From the IMG/VR virus record IMGVR_UViG_3300045988_155830, positions 1 through 64,000 of that record: 64,000 nucleotides of DNA. One strand, given 5' to 3'. Under the pieces are notes generated by a model. That model did not search any database. It saw only the letters and a list, made by a program, of their open reading frames with translations, and was not told the origin of the DNA. A program made the translations under genes and the position numbers. Below, piece after piece: positions 14,423 through 62,565 of this stretch. The stretch comes from a virus. The stretch's first letter is position 1. Each line of letters begins with the position of its first letter.

Positions 14423-14497
14423 GCGAATATAGTGTAAAGGTTAGCACGCAAGTTTTCCAAACTTGAAGTGAGAGTTCGATTCTCTTTATTCGCTCCA
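14423..14497 (+). tRNA. tRNA-Gly (anticodon TCC), CCA encoded
   Basis: Acceptor gcgaata/tattcgc; anticodon stem caagt/acttg with loop tttccaa; T-arm gagagttcgattctc. Confidence 0.75.
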
Positions 14498-14502
14498 TAT
14501 AT

Positions 14503-14578
14503 TGGGGTGTTGCCAAGCGGTAAGGCACAGGACTTTGACTCCTGCATTTCGTTGGTTCGAGTCCAACCACCCCAGCCA
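14503..14578 (+). tRNA. tRNA-Gln (anticodon TTG), CCA encoded
   Basis: Acceptor tggggtg/cacccca; D-arm gccaagcggtaaggc; anticodon stem cagga/tcctg with loop ctttgac; T-arm gttggttcgagtccaac. Confidence 0.8.
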
Positions 14579-16567: not shown

Positions 16568-16643
16568 GTGGTTGTTGGTGTAACGGTTAGCACGCTTGTT
16601 TGTGGCACAAGTAGAGTGGGTTCAATTCCCACACTTCCACCCA
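16568..16643 (+). tRNA. tRNA-His (anticodon GTG) with encoded G-1, discriminator C and CCA
   Basis: Anticodon stem cttgt/acaag with loop ttgtggc; T-arm gtgggttcaattcccac; extra 5' G opposite discriminator C; the acceptor has two U-U mismatches, so confidence is moderate. Confidence 0.5.
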
Positions 16644-16651
16644 ATATATAT

Positions 16652-16727
16652 GTGCCAGTAGCTCAATCGGTAGAGCAATCGACTTTTAATCGGTAGGTCG
16701 GAGGTTCGATTCCTCTCTGGCACACCA
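16652..16727 (+). tRNA. tRNA-Lys (anticodon TTT), CCA encoded
   Basis: Acceptor gtgccag/ctggcac; D-arm gctcaatcggtagagc; anticodon loop cttttaa; T-arm ggaggttcgattcctct. Confidence 0.8.
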
Positions 16728-20226: not shown

Positions 20227-20304
20227 GCGCCGATAGTTCAGTTGGAACAGAATGCTTGACTACGAATCAAGAGGTCGCAGGTTCGAGTCCTGCTCGGCGT
20301 GCCA
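20227..20304 (+). tRNA. tRNA-Arg (anticodon ACG), CCA encoded
   Basis: Acceptor gcgccga/tcggcgt; anticodon stem cttga/tcaag with loop ctacgaa; T-arm gcaggttcgagtcctgc. Confidence 0.75.
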
Positions 20305-20322
20305 AGAGTGAAAATTTAATAT

Positions 20323-20409
20323 GCTGGTATGATGGAATTGGCAGACATAGCGGACTTAAAATCCGCTGGCTGCAAAGCCGTGTCGGTTCGAGTCCGACTA
20401 CCAGCACCA
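20323..20409 (+). tRNA. tRNA-Leu (anticodon TAA), type II, CCA encoded
   Basis: Acceptor gctggta/taccagc; anticodon stem gcgga/tccgc with loop cttaaaa; long variable arm; T-arm tcggttcgagtccga. Confidence 0.8.
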
Positions 20410-20519
20410 CTAATTATTTAGGAAAGCAGTGATAATAAATTAAACAAGTTCCATTATATGAATTATTAAATGATGAACAATTTATTGATTGCTTTAATAA
20501 ATCTAATAGTTACACAGAA

Positions 20520-20810
20520 TTGTATCTTAATATTGGCTATTCATCTGCCAAACCAGTTAAGCCATCGAAAATAATTGGTATTAAAGAAAGAATCAAAGAA
20601 CTTGGTTTAGATGAGCATAAATTAAGTAATCGTAATTATTATAAGAAAAGTAAATATATAAACAAACATCTAAATTTTGTTTTAGACCACATTGACGGAA
20701 ACGCTTCAAACAATCGAGAAAATAATCTCCGATTGATATGTCCAAATTGTGATTCTCAATTAGACACATATAAATCTAAAAATAAAAATTCAGCAAGACA
20801 ATATAGATGA
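20520..20810 (+). CDS. HNH homing-endonuclease-like protein (short)
   Basis: HIDGNASNNRENNLRLICPNCD matches the HNH motif; located in the tRNA cluster. Confidence 0.5.
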   Translation: MYLNIGYSSAKPVKPSKIIGIKERIKELGLDEHKLSNRNYYKKSKYINKHLNFVLDHIDGNASNNRENNLRLICPNCDSQLDTYKSKNKNSARQYR

Positions 20811-20816
20811 TAATAT

Positions 20817-20906
20817 GGCGAGTTGACAGAGTATGGCTTATTGTGCTTAACTTGAAATTAAGCGGCGGTAACACGCCCGTGGGTTCAAATCCTACACTCG
20901 CCGCCA
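20817..20906 (+). tRNA. tRNA-Ser (anticodon TGA), type II, CCA encoded
   Basis: Acceptor ggcgagt/actcgcc; anticodon stem cttaa/ttaag with loop cttgaaa; long variable arm; T-arm gtgggttcaaatcctac. Confidence 0.75.
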
Positions 20907-22018: not shown

Positions 22019-22101
22019 GCTGGTGTGGTGGAATGGCAGACACGGCAGACTCAAAATCTGTTGCTATAAGCGTGCGAGTTCAAATCTCGCCACCAGCACC
22101 A
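22019..22101 (+). tRNA. tRNA-Leu (anticodon CAA), type II, CCA encoded
   Basis: Acceptor gctggtg/caccagc; anticodon stem gcaga/tctgt with loop ctcaaaa; T-arm gcgagttcaaatctcgc. Confidence 0.75.
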
Positions 22102-22103
22102 AA

Positions 22104-22197
22104 GGTTCATTGGTCAAGCGGTTAAGACACTGGCGGAGGTATGTAGTGTAAATCAGGCACACTGCCGGAGACATAGGTTCAAATCCTATATGAGCCA
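22104..22197 (+). tRNA. aberrant tRNA-like gene (94 nt) with an approximately 29-nt insertion or 9-nt loop in the anticodon region; no CCA
   Basis: Acceptor ggttcat/atgagcc; D-arm gtcaagcggttaagac; T-arm ataggttcaaatcctat; the region between D- and T-arms is 44 nt with nested stems ctggc/gccgg and agtgt/acact. Confidence 0.4.
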
Positions 22198-22253
22198 TAG
22201 ATAATCCTATTTCGTTGTTAAGTGTGGCTGACACTTTCAAAAACAGCCAATAT

Positions 22254-22329
22254 AGCAGGATAGAGAAGTGGTTATCTCGTCAGCCTCATAAGCTGAAAAT
22301 CGTGGGTTCAAATCCCACTCCTGCAACCA
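22254..22329 (+). tRNA. tRNA-Met (anticodon CAT), CCA encoded
   Basis: D-arm gagaagtggttatctc; anticodon stem tcagc/gctga with loop ctcataa; T-arm gtgggttcaaatcccac; a 1-72 A-A mismatch in the acceptor. Confidence 0.65.
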
Positions 22330-22705: not shown

Positions 22706-23515
22706 ATGAAATATGATGCATTTGATAAAAGAATGAAAAAGTATGAATTTGTGTCGAGACACTATTTGACAACTCGTACTCCTGTTATTATCCGAATTGA
22801 CGGTAAAACGTTTCATACATTCACAAGAGGTTTTCAAAGACCTTTCGATGATGTACTTTCTAAAACTATGCAGGAGACAATGAAATATCTTTGTGAAAAT
22901 ATTCAAGGTTGTGTTCTTGGATATACACAATCAGATGAGATTACTCTTGTCCTTGTTGATTACAAGAATATAGATACTTCTGCTTGGTTTGATTACAATA
23001 TCCAAAAGTGTGCGAGTGTTGCAGCAAGTATGGCAACAATGGCTTTTAATAAATTTTTCAATAACAGAGCCAATAATTATATAAATTCAGTTTTAGAACT
23101 CCAAGATACAGATATTCCATCCGAATTAGAATATATTAAGATACTTAAAAGAGCAATAGATAAAGGTGCAATGTTTGATGCTCGTGTATTCAATATTCCA
23201 AAAGATGAGGCTTGCAATAATTTACTTTGGAGACAGAATGATGCCACAAGGAACTCAATTCAGATGGTTGGCAGAGCATCTTTCTCTCACAAGCAATTAA
23301 ATAAAAAATCCACAAGCAATATTCAGGATATGCTTATGCTTGAAAAAGGCGTAAACTGGAATGATTATCCTACAAAATATAAGAGAGGTAGCTGTTGTAT
23401 TCGTAAGACTGATGAGACAACAGGTAGAAGTAAATGGATTATTGATAATGAAATTCCTATCTTTAAGGGAGATGGTCGAAAGTATGTCAATGATTTAATA
23501 TATGTGGGCGAGTAA
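22706..23515 (+). CDS. Thg1-like protein (tRNA-His guanylyltransferase family 3'-5' polymerase)
   Basis: VIIRIDGKTFHTFT and VLGYTQSDEITLVLV match the Thg1/TLP signatures (RIDGRxFHxF; GQSDEYSF); RBS GAGGATG upstream. Confidence 0.75.
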   Translation: MKYDAFDKRMKKYEFVSRHYLTTRTPVIIRIDGKTFHTFTRGFQRPFDDVLSKTMQETMKYLCENIQGCVLGYTQSDEITLVLVDYKNIDTSAWFDYNIQKCASVAASMATMAFNKFFNNRANNYINSVLELQDTDIPSELEYIKILKRAIDKGAMFDARVFNIPKDEACNNLLWRQNDATRNSIQMVGRASFSHKQLNKKSTSNIQDMLMLEKGVNWNDYPTKYKRGSCCIRKTDETTGRSKWIIDNEIPIFKGDGRKYVNDLIYVGE

Positions 23516-24671: not shown

Positions 24672-25358
24672 ATGTCATATACAAAGAGAACAGAAAACAA
24701 TGTTTCAAATGAGAAATTTGTAGAAATTAAATGTAATATTGCATCAGCAAAAAATGTCAATAATTCAACTTTTACAATAGGTAGCTATGATTTTGATACG
24801 GCATTGATGCATCCTTCAAGCATACACTTTGGTAAAGTTCAAGATGGTGCAAAAACTTATATTGATAAGAATTACAGCAAAGGTATTCGTATTATTTATA
24901 ACGGTCTGTGGGGAATGGGTACTGCAACTAATGTAATTATTCCTCACATCAAAGATGTTCAGGTTATCAAAGATAGAGTTGTCATTGTAAGTTTTGCTGA
25001 TGACTCGCAAGAAAAAGCTGTGCTTGATAGTGCTGATACTTTCTCTTTGGAGCAGGGCATTTCGATTTGCATTACAAAGAAAATGCTTTCAATGGAGACA
25101 AACGGAAACGGAAGTTCGGCATATAACAAACTTATTAACCATTGCTTGAAAGTGTATGAGAACAGCCGAAAGACAGAAGAAAAAGCAAAAGCAGAAGAAC
25201 AGACTGCAAAAGAAAAGGAAAAGAAAGCAGCAGATAAGGCAAGAGCAAAGAGAATTAAGAAAGCCAACAAGAATCGTGAAAGAGAGATTGAAATTCAAAA
25301 AGAAGCATATCTCCGTGCAATGAGAGAATTCGGCGGCAATTCTGCTGTTAATGACTAA
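24672..25358 (+). CDS. hypothetical protein with a Lys/Glu-rich C-terminus
   Basis: RBS AAGGAG; 228-aa ORF. Confidence 0.5.
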   Translation: MSYTKRTENNVSNEKFVEIKCNIASAKNVNNSTFTIGSYDFDTALMHPSSIHFGKVQDGAKTYIDKNYSKGIRIIYNGLWGMGTATNVIIPHIKDVQVIKDRVVIVSFADDSQEKAVLDSADTFSLEQGISICITKKMLSMETNGNGSSAYNKLINHCLKVYENSRKTEEKAKAEEQTAKEKEKKAADKARAKRIKKANKNREREIEIQKEAYLRAMREFGGNSAVND

Positions 25359-25415: not shown

Positions 25416-26186
25416 ATGATTTATATAACAGGCGATACTCACGCAAATTTCAATAGATTTTCTACCAAGAATTTTCCTGAACAAAAGGAAATGACTAAAG
25501 ATGATTATATGATAATTTGTGGTGATTTTGGTGGAATTTGGAATTATCTTTATTCCGACAAAACAGAAACATATTGGTTAAAATGGCTTGAAGATAAACC
25601 ATTTACGATATTATTTGTTGATGGAAACCACGAGAATTTTGATAGATTGAGTAAAGAATTTAAGGTTGTTAATTATCACGGCGGTAAAGCTCATAGAATA
25701 CGCAGCAATATCTATCATCTTATGAGAGGTTATGTATTTGAATTTGAAGGCAAGAAATTCTTTACTTTTGGCGGAGCAAGTAGTCACGATATTCAAGACG
25801 GTATATTAAAAATTGAAGATTATTCAACATTGAGTGATTTGGTTAAGGATTATAATAAAAGAACCAGAGCAGGGCAAATGTTGAGAATTGACCACATATC
25901 TTGGTGGGAAAAGGAACTTCCATCATACTATGAAATGCAGAGAGGCAGACGGGAATTAGAAAAGGTAAATTATGAAGTCGATTATGTAATTACTCATTGT
26001 GCTCCTCAAGATATTGCTTCATATATTTCTCACGGATATTACAAACCTGATATTTTAACAATGTATCTTGGTGAAATAGCTCGTGAACTTAAATTTACCA
26101 AGTGGTATTTTGGTCATTATCATAATGAACAAGCCATTATGGATAAATTTATTCTTCACTATGATAAGATTGAGAGGATTATTTAA
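25416..26186 (+). CDS. metallophosphoesterase (calcineurin-like phosphatase superfamily)
   Basis: GDTHAN, GDFGG, GNHEN and GHYH motifs in the canonical order. Confidence 0.75.
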   Translation: MIYITGDTHANFNRFSTKNFPEQKEMTKDDYMIICGDFGGIWNYLYSDKTETYWLKWLEDKPFTILFVDGNHENFDRLSKEFKVVNYHGGKAHRIRSNIYHLMRGYVFEFEGKKFFTFGGASSHDIQDGILKIEDYSTLSDLVKDYNKRTRAGQMLRIDHISWWEKELPSYYEMQRGRRELEKVNYEVDYVITHCAPQDIASYISHGYYKPDILTMYLGEIARELKFTKWYFGHYHNEQAIMDKFILHYDKIERII

Positions 26187-27097: not shown

Positions 27098-27979
27098 ATG
27101 AAAGTATTTTATCATTCAGATAATGATGGTAAATGTGCTGGTTATTGGGTAAAAACCTTAAATAAATTAACTGACAACTTTACCGATGAATATATCAAAA
27201 TAAATTATGGGATAGAATTCCCATTTGACTCTATTGGAAAGAATGAAATTGTATATATTGTAGATTATTCTATTTCTCCGGAAGAAATGGATAAGTTACT
27301 TGAAATTACGAGTAATGTCATTTGGATTGACCATCATAAATCAGCAATTGAAAAATATAAGAATTATGATAAAGATGTTAAAGGGTTAAGGTATGACGGG
27401 ATTGCTGGTTGTATGCTTACTTATTGTTATCTTTTTTTTCTTACTGATGGAGTTAAAGAATTTGAACCTGAAATGGTAGAGTCTGCTCCTTTATTTACAA
27501 AGTTAATTGCAGATTATGATGTTTGGACTTTTGAGTTTGGAGATAAGACAAGAAGATTTCAAAAAGGCTTTGAATTATATCCACACGAACCAGAGGATAA
27601 AATCTGGGATAATTTATGGAGCAATATATTCTGTGAATCAGATGAAATGAATCGGATTATAGAAGCAGGGAAGATAATTATTGAATATAGAAAATGTATG
27701 ATGGCAGAGTATTGTGAAAATAAGGGATTTGAAGCAAGTCTTGAAGATTATAAATGTTTTGCTATCAATATGGCTATGGTTAGTAGTGATGATTTTGTCA
27801 TTGATAATATAAACGATTATGATATTCTAATTGGATTCTCATATGATGGAGATAATTGGAATTATTCATTGCGTTCCACAAAGGTTGACTGTGCGGTGCT
27901 TGCTATGAAATATGGTGGTGGCGGTCATAAGGGTGCAGCAGGATTTAGTAGCCCCGACTTTGTGTTAAGAAAATTGTAA
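27098..27979 (+). CDS. DHH/DHHA1-family phosphoesterase (NrnA/RecJ-like)
   Basis: Motif I HSDNDG, motif III WIDHHKS, and DHHA1 GGGGHKGAAGF. Confidence 0.7.
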   Translation: MKVFYHSDNDGKCAGYWVKTLNKLTDNFTDEYIKINYGIEFPFDSIGKNEIVYIVDYSISPEEMDKLLEITSNVIWIDHHKSAIEKYKNYDKDVKGLRYDGIAGCMLTYCYLFFLTDGVKEFEPEMVESAPLFTKLIADYDVWTFEFGDKTRRFQKGFELYPHEPEDKIWDNLWSNIFCESDEMNRIIEAGKIIIEYRKCMMAEYCENKGFEASLEDYKCFAINMAMVSSDDFVIDNINDYDILIGFSYDGDNWNYSLRSTKVDCAVLAMKYGGGGHKGAAGFSSPDFVLRKL

Positions 27980-46963: not shown

Positions 46964-47221
46964 ATGTATTACGCAACATATAAAGGAATAGGAATGAGTG
47001 ACATTACTGCATTTGAGTCGGAGCAGGAAAGAAATGATTGGGTTGAATTTAAGGACGATTTTAGTTTACTCTGCGGAGTGACAAAAGAAAATTCAACTTT
47101 TGAAAGACAAATACTCACGAACAAAAGAGAAATTGAAAGAGTAGTTAATAACAAAAAAATTAAGAAAATTATAGATACATATAACCCGAAACAATGGTGG
47201 TTTTTAAGGAGTATAATATAA
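46964..47221 (+). CDS. hypothetical protein (85 aa)
   Basis: RBS GGAGG. Confidence 0.45.
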   Translation: MYYATYKGIGMSDITAFESEQERNDWVEFKDDFSLLCGVTKENSTFERQILTNKREIERVVNNKKIKKIIDTYNPKQWWFLRSII

Positions 47222-48015
47222 TGGCAATTAAAGGTGCAATCATAGGAGATATTATAGGTTCTCAATATGAGTTTCGTAAGCCTATGGAATTTGACAATAA
47301 AACGGCGATTTTATTATCAGAAAACTGCAAATTTACAGATGATACGGTGTTATCATTGGCAACTAAATATGCTATTAAACACAATATAAGTTTTGCCGAA
47401 GCCTATAAGTTTTTCGGATTGAAATACATAGATGCCGGATATGGTGGTTCATTTCGTGAATGGCTTAATAGTGATACCAATGAACCTTATGGTAGTTATG
47501 GCAACGGTTCTGCTATGAGGGTATCTTTTGTTGCAGATTATTATGATAGTATGCAAGATGTTGTTGAGAATGCAAGCAAAACAGCAGAATGTACTCATAA
47601 TCATCCTGAAGGAATAAAGGGTGCTGTTGTAGTAGCAATGTGTATTTGGATGGCAAAACACGGAATTTCAAAAGAAGATATTTTGAATTATGCTATTGGT
47701 CAATATCCAAAAGATAAATACGCATATAGTCCTGAACTCACTCTTGATGAAATTCGAGAAATATATCATTGGAATGATAATTGCCAAGGTAGTGTACCTG
47801 CTGCAATTAGATGTGTATATGAAGCAAATACTTATACAGAATTTATAAGAAATGTGTTGAGCTTGAAATGTGATGCAGATACATTATGTGCAATAGGTGG
47901 TGGAATTGCAGAAGAACTATTTGATAATAGAAAAGATGAAATTCTTCAATCAGCCGACCAAATATTAGGAAGGTATCTTGATGACTATTTAATGAAAGTT
48001 TTTTCTGAAAATTAG
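47221..48015 (+). CDS. ADP-ribosylglycohydrolase-family protein (ARH/DraG-like)
   Basis: N-terminal GAIIGDIIGSQYEF and GNGSAMR match the ARH signatures. Confidence 0.65.
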   Translation: MAIKGAIIGDIIGSQYEFRKPMEFDNKTAILLSENCKFTDDTVLSLATKYAIKHNISFAEAYKFFGLKYIDAGYGGSFREWLNSDTNEPYGSYGNGSAMRVSFVADYYDSMQDVVENASKTAECTHNHPEGIKGAVVVAMCIWMAKHGISKEDILNYAIGQYPKDKYAYSPELTLDEIREIYHWNDNCQGSVPAAIRCVYEANTYTEFIRNVLSLKCDADTLCAIGGGIAEELFDNRKDEILQSADQILGRYLDDYLMKVFSEN

Positions 48016-48094: not shown

Positions 48095-49126
48095 GTGAGT
48101 ATGATTGATATTAAAAAGATAATCCAAAACACAGAGTATGATTTTTTACGAACCAATGAAAATCTTGGTAGTAATATTTTTCTACTCGGATTTGGTGGCA
48201 GTTATGCTTATGGTACAAACAATGAAAACTCTGACATTGATATTAGAGGTATAGCCACAAATAGTAAAAGAAATATTCTTACAGGTAATGATTTTGAACA
48301 AGTTGTTGATATTGATACCGATACAACTGTATATTCATTCGATAAGATTATCAAATTGTTATGTTCTTGTAACCCGAATACAGTAGAAATGTTAGGATTA
48401 AAACCCGAACATTATTTCTATCTTACAAATATTGGTAGAGAACTCATAGAAAATAAATCATTATTCTTGTCAAAAAGAGCAATCCATTCATTTGGCGGAT
48501 ATGCAAACGCCCAGCTGCGAAGGTTGGAAAATAAATCTGTTCGTTTGGTTAGTCAAAGTCAGCAGGAGCAACATATTTTGAAAAGTATCGAACACGCTTC
48601 TGCTGATTTCAGAGAAAGATATTTTGATATGCCGGAAGATGCAATTACTCTGTATGTTGATAAATCGGAGCAGGAAGGTTATGATACGGAAATTTTCTGC
48701 GATGTTACATTAAAGCATTATCCTCTCCGAGATTATAAAGGAATGTTTTCCGATATGGGTACAATTATAAAGTCTTACTCAAAAATCGGTAAGAGAAATG
48801 AAAAGGCTATCGGGCATAATAAGTTGGGTAAACATATGATGCATCTTGTTCGTCTTTACCTTATGGCATTTGATATTCTTGAAAAAGGCGAAATCAATAC
48901 TTATCGAGATAAAGAACACGATTTCCTTATGAAAATAAGAAATGGTGGTTATCTCGATGAAAATAGACAGCCAACAAAGGAATTCTATGAAATTGTTGAT
49001 GAGTATGAAAACAGGCTTGATAGACTCAAGGCAACAACGGATTTGCCTGAAACAGTAGATATGAACAAGGTTATGGATTTTGTAGCCAAAGTAAATGAGA
49101 TGGTCGTTTCAGGAGGTAATATATGA
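48095..49126 (+). CDS. nucleotidyltransferase-fold protein (Pol-beta superfamily)
   Basis: GFGGSYAYGTNNENSDIDIRG matches the GS..D.D motif. Confidence 0.5.
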   Translation: MSMIDIKKIIQNTEYDFLRTNENLGSNIFLLGFGGSYAYGTNNENSDIDIRGIATNSKRNILTGNDFEQVVDIDTDTTVYSFDKIIKLLCSCNPNTVEMLGLKPEHYFYLTNIGRELIENKSLFLSKRAIHSFGGYANAQLRRLENKSVRLVSQSQQEQHILKSIEHASADFRERYFDMPEDAITLYVDKSEQEGYDTEIFCDVTLKHYPLRDYKGMFSDMGTIIKSYSKIGKRNEKAIGHNKLGKHMMHLVRLYLMAFDILEKGEINTYRDKEHDFLMKIRNGGYLDENRQPTKEFYEIVDEYENRLDRLKATTDLPETVDMNKVMDFVAKVNEMVVSGGNI

Positions 49127-50073
49127 CAAGGGAAGAAGTGCTGAATTCTATTCAGTTGAAAAAGAGATTCTGTAAAGATTGTAATATACCGATTGCCGTG
49201 TTTGATAATCCGTATTTTTGTGAAAGACTTATAACACTTGATACAATTTTTAATTGTGTTGAACAGTTTAATCTGTTTTGTGTAGAAATGCAGCAGTTCA
49301 ATAATGAGCAGGATTATTTTGAATACTATAATTTAGTAAAAGATAAAATGATTTCGGATATTAAAGGAAATCATACATATCAATCTTTCAATATAGATTT
49401 AAGTGGTAAATCTGAAACTGCCCTTAATATAGAAAGAGCAAAAGTCGGAAAGAAAAACCTTTATGTTGAAAATAATGACGGAAAGGCATTTATATCTATT
49501 GATATGAAAAAAGCAAACTTTTCATCAATGAACTTCTATTCGAGAGATATTTTCGATTGCGACACCTGGGAAGATTATGTTGGAAAATTTACGAATAGTT
49601 TACATATTCAAAATAGTAAATATATCAGACAGGTTGTATTAGGTGCTTGTAATCCTAAAAGACAAATTCAGTATGAGCATTCATTGATGTTAAAACTCTA
49701 TCTACATATCAAAGACACACTTAATGACAATGGTTTCACGGCTTACAGTATTGGCGAAGATGAAATACTTATAGAAGTAGGTCAGTTCCACCATCCGCTT
49801 AATAAGTTAAAAGAGGTTATTGATTCTTGTCCTTTAGGTATTGGTAATCTTGTAAGAGTTGAAATGTTTGATTTACAGAAAGCAGGAGATTATGGGTGGT
49901 TAAAAGTTATTTATGATGATAACCAGACCGTTAAATTCAAGTGTATTGATTCAGAGATATTTCATCAAATAGTTAAACACTATTACAATATACCAATTAC
50001 AGAAAATGACCTTGTATTTAGACATAATGGCAGACTTGCACGATTTTTAGAGGAGGTCAAAAATCCGTGGTAG
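49123..50073 (+). CDS. hypothetical protein (316 aa)
   Basis: Overlapping start and stop codons. Confidence 0.5.
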   Translation: MTREEVLNSIQLKKRFCKDCNIPIAVFDNPYFCERLITLDTIFNCVEQFNLFCVEMQQFNNEQDYFEYYNLVKDKMISDIKGNHTYQSFNIDLSGKSETALNIERAKVGKKNLYVENNDGKAFISIDMKKANFSSMNFYSRDIFDCDTWEDYVGKFTNSLHIQNSKYIRQVVLGACNPKRQIQYEHSLMLKLYLHIKDTLNDNGFTAYSIGEDEILIEVGQFHHPLNKLKEVIDSCPLGIGNLVRVEMFDLQKAGDYGWLKVIYDDNQTVKFKCIDSEIFHQIVKHYYNIPITENDLVFRHNGRLARFLEEVKNPW

Positions 50074-51392
50074 ATATAAAAATGCCTATGCCGGTTGAAT
50101 TTGCATTAAACAGATTGCATTCAAATGGTTATGAAGCTTATATCGTTGGTGGATGTGTACGTGATAGTATTATAGGAATTCAACCTCACGACTGGGATAT
50201 TTGCACATCTGCTTTGCCAGAGCAAGTCCAAGAAATATTCAAAGACTTAAAAGTAATTCCCACTGGTTTACAGCACGGAACAGTAACCGTTGTTTTTGAA
50301 GATGGCGATTGCAAGCAATGTCTTGAAATCACTACTTACAGAATTGACGGAGAATATAAAGATAACCGACACCCTGAAAATGTTAAGTTTGTATCTGACC
50401 TATCACTTGATTTAATGCGCAGAGATTTTACAATCAATGCTATGGCTTATAATGATAAAGAAGGCATCATTGATATGTTTGGCGGAGTTGAAGATATTGA
50501 AATGGGCTGTTTGAGATGTGTAGGAAATCCAGATGATAGATTTCAAGAAGATGCGCTCCGCATTATGAGAGCTATTCGCTTTGCAATTAGATATGATTTG
50601 CAAATTGATGATGAGATTATTAAATCAATTCAGAAAAACAAGATACTTTTGAAGAATGTATCTGTTGAAAGAATTTGTGCTGAATTGACAAAGATACTTG
50701 AATCAAATATCGGCAATGACGGTTCAAAGAAAAACAGGATTGAACTGATTGGTTATCTTATTGATTTTTTACAGGTAGTTCTTGATTACAAGATTGATTT
50801 TGATGAGCAAGAGGTTTACAACAGATTGGCTTTTGTTGAGCCAAATGTTCCATTAAGACTCGCAATCTTGTTTGATACTACTAATATTATGAATATCCTT
50901 AAAGATTTAAGGTTTTCAAACGATGTTGTATTTGCAGCACACGCTATCCGTGAATATGGTCATAAAATTCTTGACGAGAAAGATAAGCGGAGTAGCAAAT
51001 CAAGCATTGCGGCAGCAGTCAATAATCTGCATATAGGAGATAGAGAAGATAATGTTGAAGATGATAGCTCATTGCGTTACTATGCGAGACGGTCATTAAA
51101 AAACATTCATTCTTGCTCATTTGAATCCATAATATCGTTTGCAAAGGCTTATGTCAATGATGAATATATGTTTGTTGCATTAAACATTCTTCAAAGGCAA
51201 ATGCAATTTTGTAAAGAGAATGACGTATATTGCCTTCAGTATCTTGCCGTAAATGGCAATGATATTATGCAAGCCGGATTTGAGGGTAAGGATATAGGAG
51301 ATATATTAAATAAACTTCTCGATATGGTTATGCGAGAAGATGTCCGAAATAACAGAGAAGAATTGTTGGCTGCCGTATCAAAATTTAGATAA
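50067..51392 (+). CDS. tRNA nucleotidyltransferase (CCA-adding enzyme), class II
   Basis: GGCVRD, DWDI, RRDFTINAMAY and ERIxxE-like motifs. Confidence 0.8.
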   Translation: MVDIKMPMPVEFALNRLHSNGYEAYIVGGCVRDSIIGIQPHDWDICTSALPEQVQEIFKDLKVIPTGLQHGTVTVVFEDGDCKQCLEITTYRIDGEYKDNRHPENVKFVSDLSLDLMRRDFTINAMAYNDKEGIIDMFGGVEDIEMGCLRCVGNPDDRFQEDALRIMRAIRFAIRYDLQIDDEIIKSIQKNKILLKNVSVERICAELTKILESNIGNDGSKKNRIELIGYLIDFLQVVLDYKIDFDEQEVYNRLAFVEPNVPLRLAILFDTTNIMNILKDLRFSNDVVFAAHAIREYGHKILDEKDKRSSKSSIAAAVNNLHIGDREDNVEDDSSLRYYARRSLKNIHSCSFESIISFAKAYVNDEYMFVALNILQRQMQFCKENDVYCLQYLAVNGNDIMQAGFEGKDIGDILNKLLDMVMREDVRNNREELLAAVSKFR

Positions 51393-55448: not shown

Positions 55449-55655
55449 ATGTTTAAATGTAAAAATTGTGGAACTGAAATGGAGAGAGTTTATTCTTTTG
55501 AAAATGAGAATGAAAGTTATCAGCAGATGAAGTGTCCTAACTGTGGCGGTGCTACAAAAAAGAGACCTATCGTGTATGACGATAACGGCAATCTCGTAAC
55601 CAATTTCAAGAAGAACAATAAAAAGAAAAAGCAGAGAAAGGCTAAAGAAGAATGA
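55449..55655 (+). CDS. hypothetical zinc-ribbon protein
   Basis: CKNCG...CPNCGG. Confidence 0.45.
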   Translation: MFKCKNCGTEMERVYSFENENESYQQMKCPNCGGATKKRPIVYDDNGNLVTNFKKNNKKKKQRKAKEE

Positions 55656-58600
55656 TTATCAATGATAAGAGAGCATTAGCCTATATCGTAACCATTGATG
55701 AAATTAGACCTATTCCGAATTACGATAGGGTTGAACACGCTCGTACAAATGGATGGTGGTGTGTAACTCGTCTTAATGAATTAAAAGTTGGAGACAAAGC
55801 GGTTTATTTTGAAGTCGATAGCAAAGTGCCGGCAGATGATGAGAGATTTAGTTTCCTTGAGGCTAAACACTACAAGATTAAAACTCAAAAAATGTGTGGA
55901 GTTTTTTCACAAGGTTTGCTAATGCCAGTTACATTATTTCCTGAATTAGCGGATATGGAAGTCGGAACAGATGTTACTGATATTCTTAAAGTTACATATT
56001 CTGTCATTGAAGATAATACAAGAAAATCCAAAAATGGAGACCCTGATGCAAAATATAAGTCTATGGCACAGCGACATCAAAAGATTTTTAAGAAACCTAT
56101 TGTGCGAAAGATTATGAAACACAAGCTCGGCAGAAAGATTATGTTCCTTTTCTTTGGAAAAAAGAAAGATAAACCATTATCATTTCCGACACATTTCCCA
56201 TTTGTTCATAAGACAGATGAAGAAAGGTGTTTAATTGGCGATACAAAAGTCCAAACAAACAATGGTGTTTTAAAAATTGCCGACATAGTAAATAAAGAGT
56301 TGCCTGTTGAGGTTTTATCTTATAATGAGAAAACAAAAACAGTTGAATATAAACCGATTATTTCTTATCAAAAATTTGCGAAGAAAGAAGATGAAGATTT
56401 AATCGAAATAAAATATCCTTACAGATTTGGAAATCAAAAAACAAATACTATTCGTTGCACCCCAGACCATAAATTTTATAATGGTTCAACTTATGTACGA
56501 GCTGATGAAATTCATCAAGGTGATAAAATTTTTATTCACCATCATTGTTATGATGACTATGTTATTCAAGTTGTTTTTGGAATGCTACTTGGAGATTCTT
56601 CAATTTATTATGATAAGAGAAGTGGTAGTAATAATATCCGCATCCAAACCTCACAAGGCGAAAAACAATTAGATTACTTAAAAATGAAGCAATCGTTGTT
56701 TGGAGAACAATTCTTTAAGATTTCCAAATGTAAAAGCGGATATTGTGACAATGTGGTTTATAAAGGGTGTCTATCGGCTGATTACAATATTTCTAAAGCT
56801 GTATTAGAAAATTGTTTTATTAACAATAAGAAAACAATTACACCTACAATGTTAAAATATATTACGCCACTTTCTCTCGCAATTTGGTATATGGATGATG
56901 GCAACCTTAAACATAAATATGATAGTTGTAGTCCATCAATTATTATTTCTACTTGTGGTTTTTCAAAAAATGAAAATGAATTGCTAATTGATATGTTGAG
57001 AAATAATTTTGGAATTGAGTGCAACTTGCGTAGAGAGAAAAATAAATATTGGAGCATTTATATTACAACTGAAGGAACAAAGAAGTTCCTAAAACTCATT
57101 ACTCAATATATCCCACCGTGTATGAGGTATAAAACATTACAAGAATATGAGAATGATTATTTTTCTATCCAAGATTTAAGATATAAAAAGCAGGAACGAT
57201 TGATGCCCATACCAGTAATATCAATTAAAAAATATAAGGGTATTAGACGATATAAAACTGTTTTTGATATTGAAGTTAAAGATAATCATAATTTCTTTGC
57301 GAACAATATATTAACTCATAATTGTGAGAATATGCCGTGGGTTCTTGGATATGAAAGACCGTTAATCGTGACTGAAAAACTTGATGGTTGTCTTGATAGA
57401 GATGTTAGCGTTGTTACAGATGCTGGTTCGTTTAAGATTTCAGAAATTGTAAACAAAAAACTTCCTGTGAATGTTCTCACTTATAATTCTAATTTGAATA
57501 TTTGCGAATACAAACCGATTGTAGATTATCACAAATGGGAAAGAGTATCGGATATGTATGACATAGTAGTATCTCAACAAGGTTATAAGTGTGAAAACAA
57601 ACCGAAACATATTCGCTGTACAAGTGAACACAGCTTTTATGTTGGTAACAATCAATACATAAAAGCTAAAGACTTAAAAAATACTGATATAATTTATCAT
57701 AGATATGAAATTATTGATACATTAGTAAAAGAAATCTTATTGGGAATTTTGCTTGGAGATGCCTCATTATCTTCTAAATACGGAGTAATAAATGGTGGCG
57801 TTGATTTTAGTCATTCTATTAAACAGAAAGATTATTTTAATGAGATAAAAAGATTGTTGGGTCAAAATATTTCAATAGATACAACAAAATCGGGATATAA
57901 TTCTGAAATGTTAAGAGGTCATTTTTATACTAATTCAGAATTTAAGGAGTTGTCAAATAAAATATGTGTAAGAAATCACAAAAAATATGTAACACAAGAA
58001 TGGGCAAATGAATTAACTCCCATATCTCTTGCATTTTGGTATATGGACGATGGAACTATCTCAAATGCTGATTCAAAGTTGTCAAGACCTACAATTAGTA
58101 TTGCTACAAATGGTTTTAGTTATGAGGAATGCGAAAACTTAAAAAGAGCATTATCAACAAAGTTTAATATTGAATCAGACATAAAAATGGGAGAATCATA
58201 TAAAGGGAATACACTCTATATGAATACAATGAATACGGCTAAATTTGCTTCCTTGATTGCTCCATATATTTGCGATGGTATGAAGTACAAGTTGCCAAAA
58301 TCAATGAGAAATATTAAGTATTGTCTCGGAGATTATATAGCGAGCAATGGTAGCTCAATTACTCCCACGAAAATTATTTCTGTAAGAAAAATTGACAATT
58401 ATAACCGCAAATATGTTTTTGATTTAACAGTCAAAGATAACCATAACTATTTTGCAAACGGTATTTTAACACACAATACCTCATCTACATATATTCTTGA
58501 AAGAAAAGGCAAGAAAAAATTCGAGTTTTATGTTCTATCAAGAAATGTTCGTCAAAAGACACCTGACCAAAAGTGCTACCACGATAAGAATATTTACTGG

Positions 58601-59011
58601 GATATGGCTATTAAAAACAATATTGAGCAACGCCTAAAAGAATATCTTATTGCAAATCCAGACTTGAAATATGTCTGCATACAAGGGGAGTCTGTTGGTA
58701 GTGTTCAAGGAAATCCACTTAAATTAAACGAAGATGAACTCTATGTATTTAACTTCATTCGTTCCGATGTGGGTAGATTATCATCTATTGACGGAAAAGA
58801 AATTATTGAGAGTTGGGGTATGAAATTTGTCCCAATATTGGAAACAGAATATTATGTACCAACTGATATGGAAACATTCAAAGAGTATGCAACTGCAAAA
58901 TCTGTTGTAAATCCGAATGTATTGCGTGAGGGCATTGTGCTTCGTGACCCGACCAATGATTTTAGCTTTAAGAATGTTTCCCGTGAGTATTTATTAAAAC
59001 ACGGAGGTTAA
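55652..59011 (+). CDS. RNA/DNA-ligase-family nucleotidyltransferase (KxDG) interrupted by two LAGLIDADG inteins; the extein is about 391 aa
   Basis: Extein motifs TEKLDG|TSST (motif I), IQGESVG (motif IV) and FSFK (motif V); two insertions with the intein hallmarks Cys1 and ..THN followed by C or T. Confidence 0.65.
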   Translation: MIINDKRALAYIVTIDEIRPIPNYDRVEHARTNGWWCVTRLNELKVGDKAVYFEVDSKVPADDERFSFLEAKHYKIKTQKMCGVFSQGLLMPVTLFPELADMEVGTDVTDILKVTYSVIEDNTRKSKNGDPDAKYKSMAQRHQKIFKKPIVRKIMKHKLGRKIMFLFFGKKKDKPLSFPTHFPFVHKTDEERCLIGDTKVQTNNGVLKIADIVNKELPVEVLSYNEKTKTVEYKPIISYQKFAKKEDEDLIEIKYPYRFGNQKTNTIRCTPDHKFYNGSTYVRADEIHQGDKIFIHHHCYDDYVIQVVFGMLLGDSSIYYDKRSGSNNIRIQTSQGEKQLDYLKMKQSLFGEQFFKISKCKSGYCDNVVYKGCLSADYNISKAVLENCFINNKKTITPTMLKYITPLSLAIWYMDDGNLKHKYDSCSPSIIISTCGFSKNENELLIDMLRNNFGIECNLRREKNKYWSIYITTEGTKKFLKLITQYIPPCMRYKTLQEYENDYFSIQDLRYKKQERLMPIPVISIKKYKGIRRYKTVFDIEVKDNHNFFANNILTHNCENMPWVLGYERPLIVTEKLDGCLDRDVSVVTDAGSFKISEIVNKKLPVNVLTYNSNLNICEYKPIVDYHKWERVSDMYDIVVSQQGYKCENKPKHIRCTSEHSFYVGNNQYIKAKDLKNTDIIYHRYEIIDTLVKEILLGILLGDASLSSKYGVINGGVDFSHSIKQKDYFNEIKRLLGQNISIDTTKSGYNSEMLRGHFYTNSEFKELSNKICVRNHKKYVTQEWANELTPISLAFWYMDDGTISNADSKLSRPTISIATNGFSYEECENLKRALSTKFNIESDIKMGESYKGNTLYMNTMNTAKFASLIAPYICDGMKYKLPKSMRNIKYCLGDYIASNGSSITPTKIISVRKIDNYNRKYVFDLTVKDNHNYFANGILTHNTSSTYILERKGKKKFEFYVLSRNVRQKTPDQKCYHDKNIYWDMAIKNNIEQRLKEYLIANPDLKYVCIQGESVGSVQGNPLKLNEDELYVFNFIRSDVGRLSSIDGKEIIESWGMKFVPILETEYYVPTDMETFKEYATAKSVVNPNVLREGIVLRDPTNDFSFKNVSREYLLKHGG
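56228..57322 (+). mobile_element. intein 1 (365 aa, LAGLIDADG homing-endonuclease type)
   Basis: Begins CLIGDT; internal LLGDSSIYY and AIWYMDDGN; ends NILTHN with C+1 (CENMP). Confidence 0.75.
57389..58477 (+). mobile_element. intein 2 (363 aa, LAGLIDADG type), inserted directly after the KxDG glycine
   Basis: Begins CLDRDV; internal LLGDASL and AFWYMDDGT; ends GILTHN with T+1. Confidence 0.75.
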
Positions 59012-59015
59012 GCAA

Positions 59016-59345
59016 ATGGCAATAACTAATGAGGAAGAAATTATGCTTGAAAAGTTATTCAGAACTGAATTACAGAAACATTTTTTGCGTGGTATCAAAG
59101 TCGGTATTCAAACTTGCAGTAAGGTTTGTCTTGAAAAACTTAATGACAATTCCAAGCCGTTAATGAAACGAATTGAAAATATCAAGAAATATTGTGCTGT
59201 TGCAACACAACTAGATTTTCTTACTAAAGGTATTGATGATACACCTTCAAAAGAAGATGTACCTGAAATTAAAGAAGTTGTGGTAGAAAAATCGGCACAG
59301 CAAAATTCTGATGAAACAAATGTTTCGCAATCCCCCAATAATTGA
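59016..59345 (+). CDS. hypothetical protein
   Basis: 109-aa ORF. Confidence 0.45.
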   Translation: MAITNEEEIMLEKLFRTELQKHFLRGIKVGIQTCSKVCLEKLNDNSKPLMKRIENIKKYCAVATQLDFLTKGIDDTPSKEDVPEIKEVVVEKSAQQNSDETNVSQSPNN

Positions 59346-59415: not shown

Positions 59416-60420
59416 ATGAAATCAATTGTCAACTATAAAAGAATATGTGATAAACCATTCCTGATTATGATGTGTGGCCTGCCCGGAAGTGGCAAAAGTA
59501 CATTTGCTGAAAATTCCATCACGGTAACTTCGGGTGTAAAGCAGTATAAACCTGTAATCCATTCTTCTGATGGTTTACGCAAAGAGATTTATGGAAATGA
59601 ATCAACACAAGGAGATGCTAATAAGGTATTTGGAGAATTACATAAACGTATTAAGAACGACCTTATTGCCGGCAAAGATGTTATTTATGATGCGACTTGC
59701 ATTAAAAAGAAACAGCGTATTCAGTTTCTCAAAGAATTAAAAAATATATCTTGCACTCCTGTCTGTATTTGTATGGCAACAGAATATTCACTTTGTCTAT
59801 ATAACAATGAGCATAGAGAAAGAAAAGTACCTGTTGATGTTATTAAGCGTATGCAAATGAACTGGCAGCCTCCTCATTATAATGAAGGCTTTGAACAGAT
59901 TACATATATATTTTCTTATCTTGATAAAAATTACAATATAGTCAATGCAAGTCAAAAAGATAAATATAACCTCGGAAAATTCTTTGAAATAGCTAATTCA
60001 TTTGACCAAGAAAACCACCATCATAAACTTACACTTGGCAAACATTGTGAAAATGCAGGTCAAGGAATACAAGCAACAAACCCAGATAATTTTTGGCTTT
60101 TGATTGCTACTTTATTACACGATAATGGCAAGTTATATACAAAGACAAAAACTAATGCAAGAGGTATTGAAGATGGTGATTGCCACTATTACCAACATCA
60201 TTGTGTTGGAGCATATAATGCAATGTTCTATCTTCATAGTTTTGAAGATATTGAAGAAAAGAACATTGCATATGTTACGAATCTGATTTATTACCATATG
60301 CACCCGTATAATGAGTGGAAGCATTCTGAAAGAGTGCATAATAAAGATAAGTTACTTCTTGGCAAAAAATTATATAACGATATTCAACTGTTGCACGAAG
60401 CAGATTTGCTTGCACATTGA
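59416..60420 (+). CDS. polynucleotide-kinase-like P-loop kinase fused to an HD-domain phosphohydrolase
   Basis: N-terminal MMCGLPGSGKST (Walker A, T4 Pnk-like); C-terminal LIATLLHDNGK (HD motif). Confidence 0.6.
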   Translation: MKSIVNYKRICDKPFLIMMCGLPGSGKSTFAENSITVTSGVKQYKPVIHSSDGLRKEIYGNESTQGDANKVFGELHKRIKNDLIAGKDVIYDATCIKKKQRIQFLKELKNISCTPVCICMATEYSLCLYNNEHRERKVPVDVIKRMQMNWQPPHYNEGFEQITYIFSYLDKNYNIVNASQKDKYNLGKFFEIANSFDQENHHHKLTLGKHCENAGQGIQATNPDNFWLLIATLLHDNGKLYTKTKTNARGIEDGDCHYYQHHCVGAYNAMFYLHSFEDIEEKNIAYVTNLIYYHMHPYNEWKHSERVHNKDKLLLGKKLYNDIQLLHEADLLAH

Positions 60421-61513: not shown

Positions 61514-61948
61514 ATGGGATTTAGACAGGCAGACAACGAAGGTCGTGGTGGTTTCGCACGCATTTGGTCTATCGAGAACAAGGGTAACTATTCAGTTGCA
61601 AAAATCAGTACAAGTAAAAAACGCAAAGATGGAGGTGGTTATGAGACCGATTTCCAGGACGGATTTGTTCGTTTAATTGGTTCTGCTCACGAAAAAGGTA
61701 AGACTTTAACCGTGACAGAAAAAGGTGTAGCAATTCAAATTACATCTTGCGAGGTTACTACCCCTTACAATGCAGAAACCAAAAAAGGTTATACAAACTA
61801 TGCAATTTTTGCTTTCAATATTCCCGAAGGCAATGATAATTCATCGACAACAAAGGGCGGCAAGAAGTCATCGGCAAAGACTTCAAAGGCAAAGACTAAA
61901 AAGGCTGCCGAAGTCGCAGATGAGCCAGAAGATGAGCTTCCGTTCTAA
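61514..61948 (+). CDS. ssb: single-stranded DNA-binding protein
   Basis: OB-fold-like N-terminus, Gly/Ser-rich linker, and acidic C-terminal tail ending DEPEDELPF. Confidence 0.7.
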   Translation: MGFRQADNEGRGGFARIWSIENKGNYSVAKISTSKKRKDGGGYETDFQDGFVRLIGSAHEKGKTLTVTEKGVAIQITSCEVTTPYNAETKKGYTNYAIFAFNIPEGNDNSSTTKGGKKSSAKTSKAKTKKAAEVADEPEDELPF

Positions 61949-62565
61949 TGGCTGAAACAAATCCTAATGTTGAGAGGTTTGAACAGTTATTAAAAAGCAC
62001 TAATAGAGAAGGTATAGATAGTCTGATTGACTTTATTAGGAAGTCAGACTTCTATACTGCTCCTGCATCAACAAGATTTCATTCTTGTCACGAAGGTGGG
62101 TTGTTAGAGCATACATTACTTGTTTATGACCGTCTCAACACAAAATTTGAAGATAAATTGTGGAGTGAGAAAGTTGATGTCAAAATTGAAAACATCATTA
62201 TTGCCGCACTACTTCACGATTTATGTAAGGTATATTACTACGGAACAGAGTTAAAAAATAAGAAGATTTACAGTGACCACGGAAAGAAATCAGATAGCAA
62301 TGGCAGGTATGATTGGGAGACAATTCCGGCTTATACAGTGGATGATAAAATCCCTTACGGTCACGGAGAAAAGTCAGCAATGATGGTAGAAGAATTTATC
62401 CGTTTAGAACCAGTTGAAAGATACGCTATTCGTTGGCATATGGGCTTTACAGAGCCTAAAGAGAATTGGAATACTCTTGGATGTGCAATTCGCAAATATC
62501 CTCTTATTTTGGCTCTACATACATCGGATTTAGAAGCAACATACTTGTTAGAAAAGGAAGAATAA
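61948..62565 (+). CDS. HD-domain phosphohydrolase
   Basis: H..H...D pattern; IAALLHDLCK. Confidence 0.6.
   Translation: MAETNPNVERFEQLLKSTNREGIDSLIDFIRKSDFYTAPASTRFHSCHEGGLLEHTLLVYDRLNTKFEDKLWSEKVDVKIENIIIAALLHDLCKVYYYGTELKNKKIYSDHGKKSDSNGRYDWETIPAYTVDDKIPYGHGEKSAMMVEEFIRLEPVERYAIRWHMGFTEPKENWNTLGCAIRKYPLILALHTSDLEATYLLEKEE

Follow-up and report, generated by a model that had tools for sequence, protein, structure and literature searches.

The 64,000-nucleotide stretch of DNA analyzed here (positions 1 to 64,000 of IMG/VR virus record IMGVR_UViG_3300045988_155830, referred to below as the window) carries a gene for a Thg1-like protein (TLP), located immediately downstream of a group of tRNA genes, together with genes for several other enzymes with predicted roles at RNA ends. 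An earlier note, made from the sequence alone, had proposed that the TLP, a CCA-adding enzyme, a polynucleotide kinase fused to an HD phosphoesterase, an intein-bearing RNA ligase and a separate HD hydrolase act jointly, with the tRNAs of the phage, to heal tRNAs damaged by host nucleases. All five open reading frames (ORFs) are present in the ORF list of the window, on the + strand and exactly where the note had placed them, and the enzyme identities it gave were confirmed by Pfam searches and comparison with solved relatives. The gene set was only partly right: four of the genes are of the repair type, but RlaP, an unnamed 316-residue protein (here called U316), a metallophosphoesterase (MPE), a DHH phosphoesterase and an ADP-ribosylglycohydrolase had been overlooked. 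The genes are spread over three sub-clusters, and we consider it rather likely that they encode a modular system for the repair of damaged RNA, with tRNA as its most plausible substrate.

The window sequence recurs in 20 public human-gut metagenome contigs, the longest of 120,086 bp, and its source is a human-gut phage of at least 120 kb. Megablast of the 20-26 kb region against 50,697 GenBank phage records gave no match, i.e. the phage is without a close cultured relative there. Proteins were annotated with Pfam, NCBIfam/TIGR, PHROGs and PADLOC profiles and by comparison with the sequences of solved structures, and tRNAs were called with ARAGORN and Rfam. Related loci, labeled L plus a number, were fetched from IMG/VR by four separate queries (TLP, the kinase-HD fusion Pnk-HD, RlaP and U316), and the window proteins were mapped onto them by tblastn. 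The TLP and U316 queries each yielded a set of 80 loci, and the Pnk-HD loci include L206-L216 (n = 11). A single study (IMG/VR 3300045988) is the source of many of the fetched loci, which may be akin to one another.

Gene content and linkage of the repair genes

The TLP gene (22706..23515, + strand) encodes a bacterial-type 3'-5' nucleotidyltransferase of 269 residues. It matches the Pfam Thg1 family (PF04446, E 9.8e-31) with 106.8 bits, where the cut-off is 29.2, and its top solved relative is the TLP of Bacillus thuringiensis (BtTLP, 4kgk, E 6e-63); eukaryotic and archaeal Thg1 match far more weakly (E 1e-7 to 1e-9; E 5e-9 to 9e-7 for Candida, human and other eukaryotic enzymes). The three catalytic carboxylates were looked for on the alignment with 4kgk and all were found: D32, D77 and E78 align without gaps with D30, D75 and E76 of BtTLP, which, like D29, D76 and E77 of hTHG1, are active-site carboxylates with metal-binding and structural roles (PMC3701042). 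The nucleoside triphosphate (NTP)-binding residues E12, R28 and H35 of BtTLP correspond to E14, R30 and H37. The phage protein differs from BtTLP by about 27 extra residues (within 121-154). The HINNLYN segment of the eukaryotic enzymes is absent; where Candida Thg1 has WRQVDCHINNLYN, the phage TLP has WRQNDATRNSIQ. Because of the BtTLP match, the retained carboxylates and the missing segment, we assign the TLP, on sequence grounds, to the repair type rather than to the eukaryotic G-1-adding Thg1. The BtTLP family repairs 5'-truncated tRNAs by templated 3'-5' addition, and the phage TLP is predicted to rebuild truncated 5' ends in the same manner. TLP genes are annotated in 161 of the 50,697 GenBank phage records, chiefly in Bacillus, Prevotella, Caulobacter and Mycobacterium phages. 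The view that such a protein is uncommon in a phage thus stands as to frequency, but TLPs are routinely annotated and were already described for jumbo phages (PMC7824862).

Two phosphoesterase genes follow the TLP. The calcineurin-like MPE (25416..26186, + strand; PF00149, E 8e-10; phrog_1649), for which a sequence search of the PDB returned no solved homologue, is a candidate for healing 2',3'-cyclic or 3'-phosphate ends. It adjoins the TLP in L321, L325 and L330, and in ten further loci of the U316 set it is located 2-5 kb downstream of the RlaP-U316-CCA block. The NrnA/RecJ-like DHH/DHHA1 phosphoesterase (27098..27979, + strand; Pfam DHH and DHHA1; phrog_4771) comes after the CCA gene in L320, L328, L329 and L331 and may function in trimming or nanoRNA clearance. 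An unnamed ORF of 228 residues (24672..25358, + strand), with no family match in profile searches, travels with TLP, MPE and RlaP. It lies between TLP and MPE in L009-L011, L014 and L015, and upstream of RlaP in 12 U316 loci. Directly 3' of the TLP (23739-24626, + strand) is a DUF488-N3a (ParB/Srx-fold) domain fused to a C-terminal phage domain, phrog_652, and this fusion occurs near the TLP in only a few relatives.

A second sub-cluster contains RlaP (48095..49126, + strand), a Pol-beta-family nucleotidyltransferase (PF10127, E 9e-15; 55.4 bits, cut-off 23). Its stop codon overlaps the start of U316, and the pair is directly upstream of the CCA gene, again with overlapping stop and start codons. 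Members of the RlaP family add one or two NMP (nucleoside monophosphate) residues to the 3'-OH of damaged RNA, and in vitro they make damaged tRNA chargeable again. A function as antidotes against RloC and other nucleotide-excising ribotoxins has been suggested for them, but the additions are untemplated, so most repaired tRNAs would be wrong (PMC12776372). RlaP adjoins or lies near Rnl5-type ligases in L231, L250, L259-L261 and L268. The third gene (50067..51392, + strand) encodes a class II tRNA nucleotidyltransferase of the CCA-adding type, as the earlier note had it, with a Pol-beta (PolyA_pol) head (PF01743, E 8e-37), an RNA-binding neck/body (PF12627) and a tRNA-binding tail (PF13735, tRNA_NucTran2_2). 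It is closest to CCA-adding enzymes of Firmicutes (6ibp, E 6e-54; 1miv, E 6e-47), and the motifs GGxVRD, RRD and EDxxR are visible in the alignment with 6ibp. Directly 5' of RlaP is an ADP-ribosylglycohydrolase (47194..48015, + strand; PF03747, E 1.7e-25), which precedes RlaP in 16 of the 80 U316 loci as well.

The ligase gene (55652..59011, + strand) encodes a precursor of 1119 residues, of which 391 make up the spliced extein. Its Pfam content consists of a PHA02142 OB domain (PF21189, residues 9-93), HINT, LAGLIDADG and intein domains, and a C-terminal RNA_ligase domain (PF09414). The spliced extein matches NgrRnl (5cot, E 5e-33) over NgrRnl residues 5-121 and 139-337, i.e. the N-terminal and nucleotidyltransferase (NTase) domains, and the DraRnl model TIGR02306 (E 7e-28; 97.5 bits, under the 151-bit equivalog cut-off). 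Intein-free orthologues in other phage contigs, at 74-87% identity, align seamlessly through both junctions. Because of these matches and the continuity of the orthologues, the ligase, as judged from its extein, belongs to the Rnl5 family of ATP-dependent, nick-sealing RNA ligases (NgrRnl/DraRnl type), and it groups with the RNA ligases rather than with DNA ligases. A complete NAD-dependent DNA ligase, LigA, is encoded separately at 33202-35151.

The ligase had been described as bearing an intein; inteins are indeed present, but there are two. Intein 1 (56228..57322, + strand; 365 residues, precursor residues 193-557) starts with Cys1, ends in THN and is followed by a +1 Cys; it contains a LAGLIDADG homing endonuclease. 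Intein 2 (57389..58477, + strand; 363 residues, precursor residues 580-942), also of the LAGLIDADG type, has Cys1, the same THN end and a +1 Thr. The two are paralogous (38% identical), their region matches Pfam PT-HINT, LAGLIDADG_2 and Intein_splicing, and both have the features of class 1 inteins. The excision points, placed from the sequence, are confirmed by the intein-free orthologues, which are continuous there. Intein 2 splits ligase motif I between KLDG and TSS. Its removal restores a KLDG identical to motif I of NgrRnl (170-KLDG, PMC4408790) and unbroken in the intein-free orthologues. The phage ligase shares with NgrRnl and DraRnl an N-terminal OB-like domain followed by the NTase domain, the absence of a C-terminal appendage and the KLDG motif. 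It differs from both in its two LAGLIDADG inteins, one of them within motif I, and from NgrRnl in an extra basic linker of about 60 residues (116-181) that is unaligned to NgrRnl.

Pnk-HD (59416..60420, + strand) combines an N-terminal 5'-OH polynucleotide kinase of the Pnkp type (residues 15-155) with a probable HD phosphoesterase at the C terminus (residues ∼195-334). The kinase half matches the P-loop kinases AAA_33/KTI12 of Pfam and TIGR04075. Among solved proteins it is closest to the Clostridium thermocellum Pnkp kinase domain (CthPnkp, 4gp7; E 2e-8, or 8e-19 with the family profile), and the kinase domain of T4 Pnk matches only weakly (E 3e-4). The P-loop reads GLPGSGKST, and G21, G26, K27, D52, R55, D92 and R134 are invariant in the family. 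In the C-terminal half, H203, H235-D236, H257, H261, H294, H327 and D330 are invariant, and residues 199-296 match the HD region of TIGR02692, a model of actinobacterial CCA enzymes (E 1.7e-5). Pfam HD falls below threshold on the window protein itself (E 0.009), and many full-length homologues carry PF01966; Pnk-HD contains no HAD phosphatase. The fusion that had been proposed is thus supported, the HD half on moderate evidence. Pnk-HD is predicted to heal broken RNA ends. HD-Pnk of Runella slithyformis likewise joins an HD domain, there a 2',3'-phosphoesterase, to a P-loop kinase, and its gene also adjoins that of an ATP-dependent ligase. The phage protein departs from the Runella-type architecture in its reversed order, kinase first, and its gene in having Rnl5 as the partner ligase and a small conserved ORF in between. 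This ORF (o59016; 59016..59345, + strand; 109 residues) has no family match in profile searches, and a homologue is directly 5' of Pnk-HD in nine of the 11 loci L206-L216, and also in L231 and L268.

The stand-alone HD hydrolase (61948..62565, + strand; phrog_28876) was the one component of the earlier proposal that was not borne out. It has weak HD/HDIG matches (HD, E 6e-5) and no solved homologue by sequence (E up to 1). Its gene travels in a recombination block, Sak-o61514-HD-o62569, in which Sak is a Sak-like annealing protein (recombinase), and not with the repair genes. Because of this linkage, it probably lies outside the repair set.

ARAGORN and Rfam find the same ten tRNAs in the window, in agreement with the count of at least ten given earlier. 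tRNA-Gly(UCC) and tRNA-Gln(UUG), both with encoded CCA (14423..14578, + strand), are directly 3' of a Band-7/SPFH gene (12670-14274), and are followed by tRNA-His(GUG) and tRNA-Lys(UUU) (16568..16727, + strand) and by tRNA-Arg(ACG), tRNA-Leu(UAA) and tRNA-Ser(UGA) (20227..20906, + strand). tRNA-Leu(CAA), a 94-nt tRNA-like gene and tRNA-Met(CAU) form a cluster immediately 5' of the TLP (22019..22329, + strand) that is syntenic in L007-L016. For the tRNA-His gene (16569-16643), base 16568 is G and the discriminator, 16640, is C, a bacterial-type G-1:C73 pair; the genomically encoded G-1 noticed before is therefore real. CCA is encoded in nine of the ten window tRNAs and in 131 of 168 tRNAs of the related loci. 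With both G-1 and CCA encoded, the TLP and the CCA enzyme would not be needed for routine maturation.

The main evidence that the scattered genes act jointly, as had been suggested, comes from their recurrent adjacency in related phages. The order Rnl5-o59016-PnkHD is found in L206 and L211, and Rnl5-PnkHD-TLP is contiguous in L032-L034. RlaP-U316-Rnl5like-o59016-PnkHD is contiguous in L231 and L268, as is RlaP-CCA-DHH-Rnl5 in L250; L259-L261 have RlaP-U316-CCA-Rnl5like, and L321, L325 and L330 have MPE-TLP-RlaP-U316. RlaP-U316-CCA is the order in 64 of the 80 U316 loci. Of the 80 TLP loci, 31 have a Pnk-HD homologue no more than 10 kb from the TLP, whereas 58 lack any tRNA over the same distance; in the latter the TLP adjoins Pnk-HD, Rnl5 or RlaP. 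Since the same partners recur in shuffled orders, linkage supports one functional network formed by the three sub-clusters of the window.

U316, a conserved neighbor of RlaP

U316 (49123..50073, + strand) has no match in Pfam (even at E 1), PHROGs, NCBIfam or PADLOC, and no sequence similarity to any solved protein (E up to 10). At 50% identity the family forms 1,837 clusters in metagenomes, where U316 has 1,331 close homologues; among GenBank phage records, only three contain it. No homologue was found in T4, and in Salicola phage SCTP-2 the neighbors of the U316 homologue are annotated as hypothetical proteins only. The association with RlaP is nearly constant: RlaP is immediately upstream in 77 of the 80 loci that were fetched via U316 alone, two of the three others clearly have U316 at the contig end, and the CCA enzyme is immediately downstream in 64. 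One protein of 839 residues is a fusion of RlaP and U316.

The predicted fold is a minimal PolB-like palm and fingers. Foldseek searches of viral models gave uncharacterized giant-virus proteins (E 1e-16 to 1e-7, TM 0.6-0.8), some annotated as R3H or fused to a DEDDy exonuclease, with weaker matches to phage DNA polymerases and herpesvirus UL8. Among sequences 28-54% identical to the window protein, three motifs are near-invariant: S125-x-D127...A131-N132-F133 at a strand end, S165-K166...R169 in a helix, and D213-E214 where a strand begins. Motifs A, B and C of right-hand polymerases follow one another in this order. Compared with family B DNA polymerases, U316 has only 316 residues and lacks the exonuclease, N-terminal and thumb domains as well as the sequence motifs; what distinguishes it both from these enzymes and from the orphan 'R3H domain' proteins of giant viruses is its pairing with RlaP. 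We read U316 as a probable active nucleotidyltransferase working with RlaP. A stronger version, which we put forward only tentatively, is that U316 represents a so far undescribed family of minimal nucleotidyltransferases with PolB-like palm and fingers that are obligate partners of RlaP in RNA 3'-end repair. U316 might, for instance, refill the trimmed 3' strand of an acceptor stem on a template, ahead of RlaP and the CCA enzyme, mirroring the 5' refilling by the TLP.

U316 is the new lead of this analysis. The jumbo-phage review does not mention a PolB-like partner of RlaP in the passages covered (PMC7824862). The activity of RlaP is known but inaccurate, and its almost invariable pairing here with a conserved polymerase-like protein is testable. 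If the tentative assignment of U316 is true, it would represent a new enzyme class for RNA repair, and if U316 supplies templating or specificity to RlaP, this would account for the countering of nucleotide-excising ('smart') ribotoxins.

A model for RNA repair and its alternatives

From the observed domain identities, conserved catalytic residues, intein boundaries and gene linkage, we infer the activities, the substrate and a counter-defense role as follows. In the heal-and-seal sub-cluster (55.6-60.4 kb), the HD domain of Pnk-HD would remove a 2',3'-cyclic or 3'-phosphate and its P-loop domain would phosphorylate the 5'-OH. Rnl5, after splicing of both inteins, would then join the 3'-OH to the 5'-PO4 in a base-paired context. 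In the 3'-end sub-cluster (47.2-51.4 kb), RlaP would return one or two lost nucleotides and the CCA enzyme would rebuild the CCA tail, with U316 adding a further step, probably nucleotidyl transfer, that is coupled to RlaP. In the 5'-end sub-cluster (22.7-28 kb), the TLP would rebuild acceptor stems truncated at the 5' end by 3'-5' addition templated by the 3' strand, and the MPE and DHH phosphoesterase may trim or heal ends. The phage tRNAs could serve as a spare or replacement supply. The likely purpose is to maintain translation when host defense nucleases cut or trim tRNAs, and a link from the repair kit to host anticodon nucleases in particular may be envisaged. Given the dependence of Rnl5 on a nicked duplex and of the TLP on a template strand, base-paired lesions in the acceptor or anticodon stem would fit better than the loop cuts sealed by T4 Rnl1.

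Several observations weigh against this model. The repair genes are 25-35 kb apart in the window phage and do not form a single operon. The function of the ligase relies on two protein-splicing events, and because Rnl5 requires a nicked duplex (PMC4408790), the sealing of anticodon-loop breaks is not assured. The HD assignment of Pnk-HD depends on motifs and weak profile matches. The CCA enzyme scores 276.5 bits against NF009814 over its full length, slightly under the 290-bit cut-off; it is much poorer against PcnB models (172.8 bits, cut-off 305). Assignment of a host through the TnpB protein described below was tried and abandoned, as the closest Bacteroides and Prevotella genome bins are only 41-48% identical. 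Finally, the tRNAs suit codon supply of an AT-rich genome: AAA makes up 68% of Lys codons and CAA 59% of Gln codons, and the phage most often encodes Leu by TTA and Ser by TCA.

This last point leads to an alternative in which the TLP, the CCA enzyme and the other proteins mature or quality-control phage tRNAs that match AT-rich codons, with no link to host defense. The phage tRNAs do match abundant A/U-ending codons, the TLP directly follows the tRNA array in an order kept in L007-L016, the tRNA-like gene at 22104-22197 is without CCA, and the tRNA-His of L009 and L013 is without an encoded G-1. Repair is favored over maturation because G-1 is encoded on the window tRNA-His and CCA on nearly all tRNAs, as counted above; these encoded ends fit repair and say nothing about its target. 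In addition, the TLP of most loci has no tRNA nearby but stands beside Pnk-HD, Rnl5 or RlaP, kinase-phosphoesterase-ligase sets play no part in bacterial tRNA maturation, and DNA ligation has its own enzyme in LigA, so that we regard a purely housekeeping role as unlikely. The system might instead act on other substrates, such as rRNA or mRNA with nicks, DNA nicks that are RNA-primed or contain ribonucleotides, or nucleic-acid ends bearing ADP-ribose, the connection with tRNA being coincidental. The nicks sealed by Rnl5 ligases lie in duplexes whose 3'-OH strand is RNA, and the natural substrates of these enzymes are not established (PMC4408790); knockout of DraRnl makes cells radiation-sensitive, HD-Pnk of Runella heals DNA and RNA ends alike (PMC6097658), and an ADP-ribosylglycohydrolase gene precedes RlaP. 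Against this, all characterized TLPs and CCA enzymes are specific for tRNA ends (PMC3701042, PMC4820378), and in relatives the genes of both are linked to those of RlaP, Pnk-HD and Rnl5, while RlaP restores the aminoacylation of damaged tRNA in vitro (PMC12776372). A substrate other than tRNA therefore seems improbable.

One may also ask whether there is a joint pathway at all. The genes are spread over 38 kb among DNA methylases, nucleotide-metabolism genes and a TnpB element, and the shared study origin of many loci (IMG/VR 3300045988) means that they are possibly akin; the genes could be accessory ones, acquired independently in a hypervariable region, and their linkage a result of shared ancestry among close gut phages. 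Gene orders vary by lineage, however, and the same partners recombine at TLP or U316 identities down to 38-60%. A RlaP-U316 fusion exists, and the same 'syntax' (Burroughs & Aravind 2016) is reported across unrelated jumbo phages and bacteria (PMC7824862). We give independent acquisition very little credence, and retain tRNA repair as the preferred interpretation.

The concept of such a toolkit is already published. According to Iyer et al. 2021 (PMC7824862), RNA-repair sets of jumbo phages comprise a ligase, Pnk, phosphoesterases, RlaP, a CCA enzyme, sporadic Thg1 and many tRNAs, and are read there as counters to host attack on tRNA; the interpretation in the earlier note is largely right but not novel. 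The window phage has the same component list and likewise many tRNAs. It differs from those sets in its double-intein ligase, its Pnk-HD order and a PolB-like RlaP partner that the passages covered do not mention. It is also an uncultivated gut phage whose size, at least 120 kb, is under the usual jumbo threshold. The Pnkp and Rnl1 of phage T4, which counter PrrC, provide a similar sequence of 5' kinase, 3' phosphoesterase and ATP-dependent RNA ligase, and T4 also encodes RlaP (NrdC.11). In the window phage, the putative phosphoesterase is of the HD and not the HAD type, the ligase is of the nick-sealing Rnl5 family, with an N-terminal OB-like domain, and not an Rnl1, and there is a TLP, which T4 lacks. 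The notion of a classic phage answer to anticodon nucleases implies a T4 Rnl1-type anticodon-loop ligase, which an Rnl5 is not (PMC4408790). Rnl5 homologues in phages were pointed out in 2015 (PMC4408790); minor variations in the window phage are the double-intein Rnl5, the domain order of Pnk-HD and the small conserved ORF between ligase and kinase. The results extend repair arsenals in the style of jumbo phages to abundant uncultivated phages of the human gut (∼120-170 kb), in which TLP, Pnk-HD, Rnl5, RlaP and CCA enzyme form a shuffled yet linked gene network. This network could guide the search for matching tRNA-targeting defenses in gut bacteria.

tRNA genes and additional neighbors

The 94-nt tRNA-like gene (22104-22197, + strand) is called 'Pro(AGG)' by ARAGORN and scores 49.9 bits with the Rfam tRNA model; its anticodon 'loop' has 29 nt instead of 7. 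It is the sole window tRNA without encoded CCA. Its backbone is nearest to tRNA-Glu of relatives, a tRNA missing from the window phage, and outside this phage the gene is confined to two IMG/VR contigs, at 91% TLP identity. An intron was considered as the origin of the 22-nt insertion in the anticodon loop, but no single excision gives a canonical loop (U33, purine 37), and shuffled sequences fold about as stably (z = -0.8). A gapped pattern scan for further copies was unspecific: its ∼119 matches are mostly due to chance, and only the two contigs already known are real. Other unusual tRNA-like genes were found in related loci. Those at ∼5155 in L027 and ∼3800 in L051, phages with contiguous TLP-RlaP-U316, have a two-base 'anticodon' in ARAGORN ('???(tg)'), and L015 has a 94-nt tRNA-Ile(UAU) with a long variable arm.

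The acceptor stem of tRNA-His contains two neighboring U·U mismatches (4:69 and 5:68), which are kept in L007, L010 and L014. They look selected, since they persist while the T and anticodon arms diverged. In L009 and L013, where tRNA-His is without encoded G-1, the discriminator is U73. tRNA-Met(CAU) (22254-22329, + strand) is without initiator features and has an A1·A72 mismatch, which appears to be a recent point change because all relatives have U1-A72. We also considered whether the TLP edits mismatched tRNA 5' ends in the style of amoebal mitochondria. This was rejected: the mismatch in tRNA-Met is the sole one at position 1, with U1-A72 in relatives, and the conserved mismatches of tRNA-His, at positions 4 and 5, are beyond editing range.

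A TnpB gene (Cas12f-like/OrfB_IS605; 15207-16553, + strand) is located within the tRNA array and ends 15 nt before the G-1 of tRNA-His. At the same position the closest relative, L007, has tRNA-Ser(GCU), tRNA-Trp and tRNA-Cys, which the element therefore appears to have replaced. The array also contains a protein of 748 residues (16972-19218, + strand) that matches phrog_33734 only and has the same position in eight related loci. The Band-7/SPFH protein (12670-14274, + strand; 534 residues) keeps its adjacency to tRNA in six loci (L007-L010, L013 and L016). Band-7 proteins with 'b7a-tRNA' were proposed by Burroughs & Aravind as RNA-repair scaffolds, as cited in bioRxiv 10.1101/312249. Upstream of this gene, an arrangement kept in several relatives, is a reverse transcriptase fused to a YAcAr/SLOG domain (10764-12176, + strand), whose top PADLOC matches are the defense-type reverse transcriptases UG17 and Drt3a.

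A divergent adenylosuccinate-synthetase homologue (42503-43702, + strand) matches phrog_1211, '2-aminooxy adenylosuccinate synthetase' (E 2e-54), which, from its name, we take to be a family of the PurZ type. The gene may indicate a genome containing 2-aminoadenine (Z-base). The stand-alone HD hydrolase was considered as its DatZ-like partner and rejected, in view of the lack of a solved homologue (E up to 1) and the linkage to Sak instead. Near the PurZ-like gene are an S-adenosylmethionine (SAM) synthetase (38200-39264) and DNA methyltransferases (at 35986, 43699, 52073 and 54862). A PAPS-reductase/PP-loop domain is split over two ORFs (53353-53895 and 53930-54313, + strand), a pair that is kept in relatives and is followed by an NT5C-type 5'-nucleotidase.

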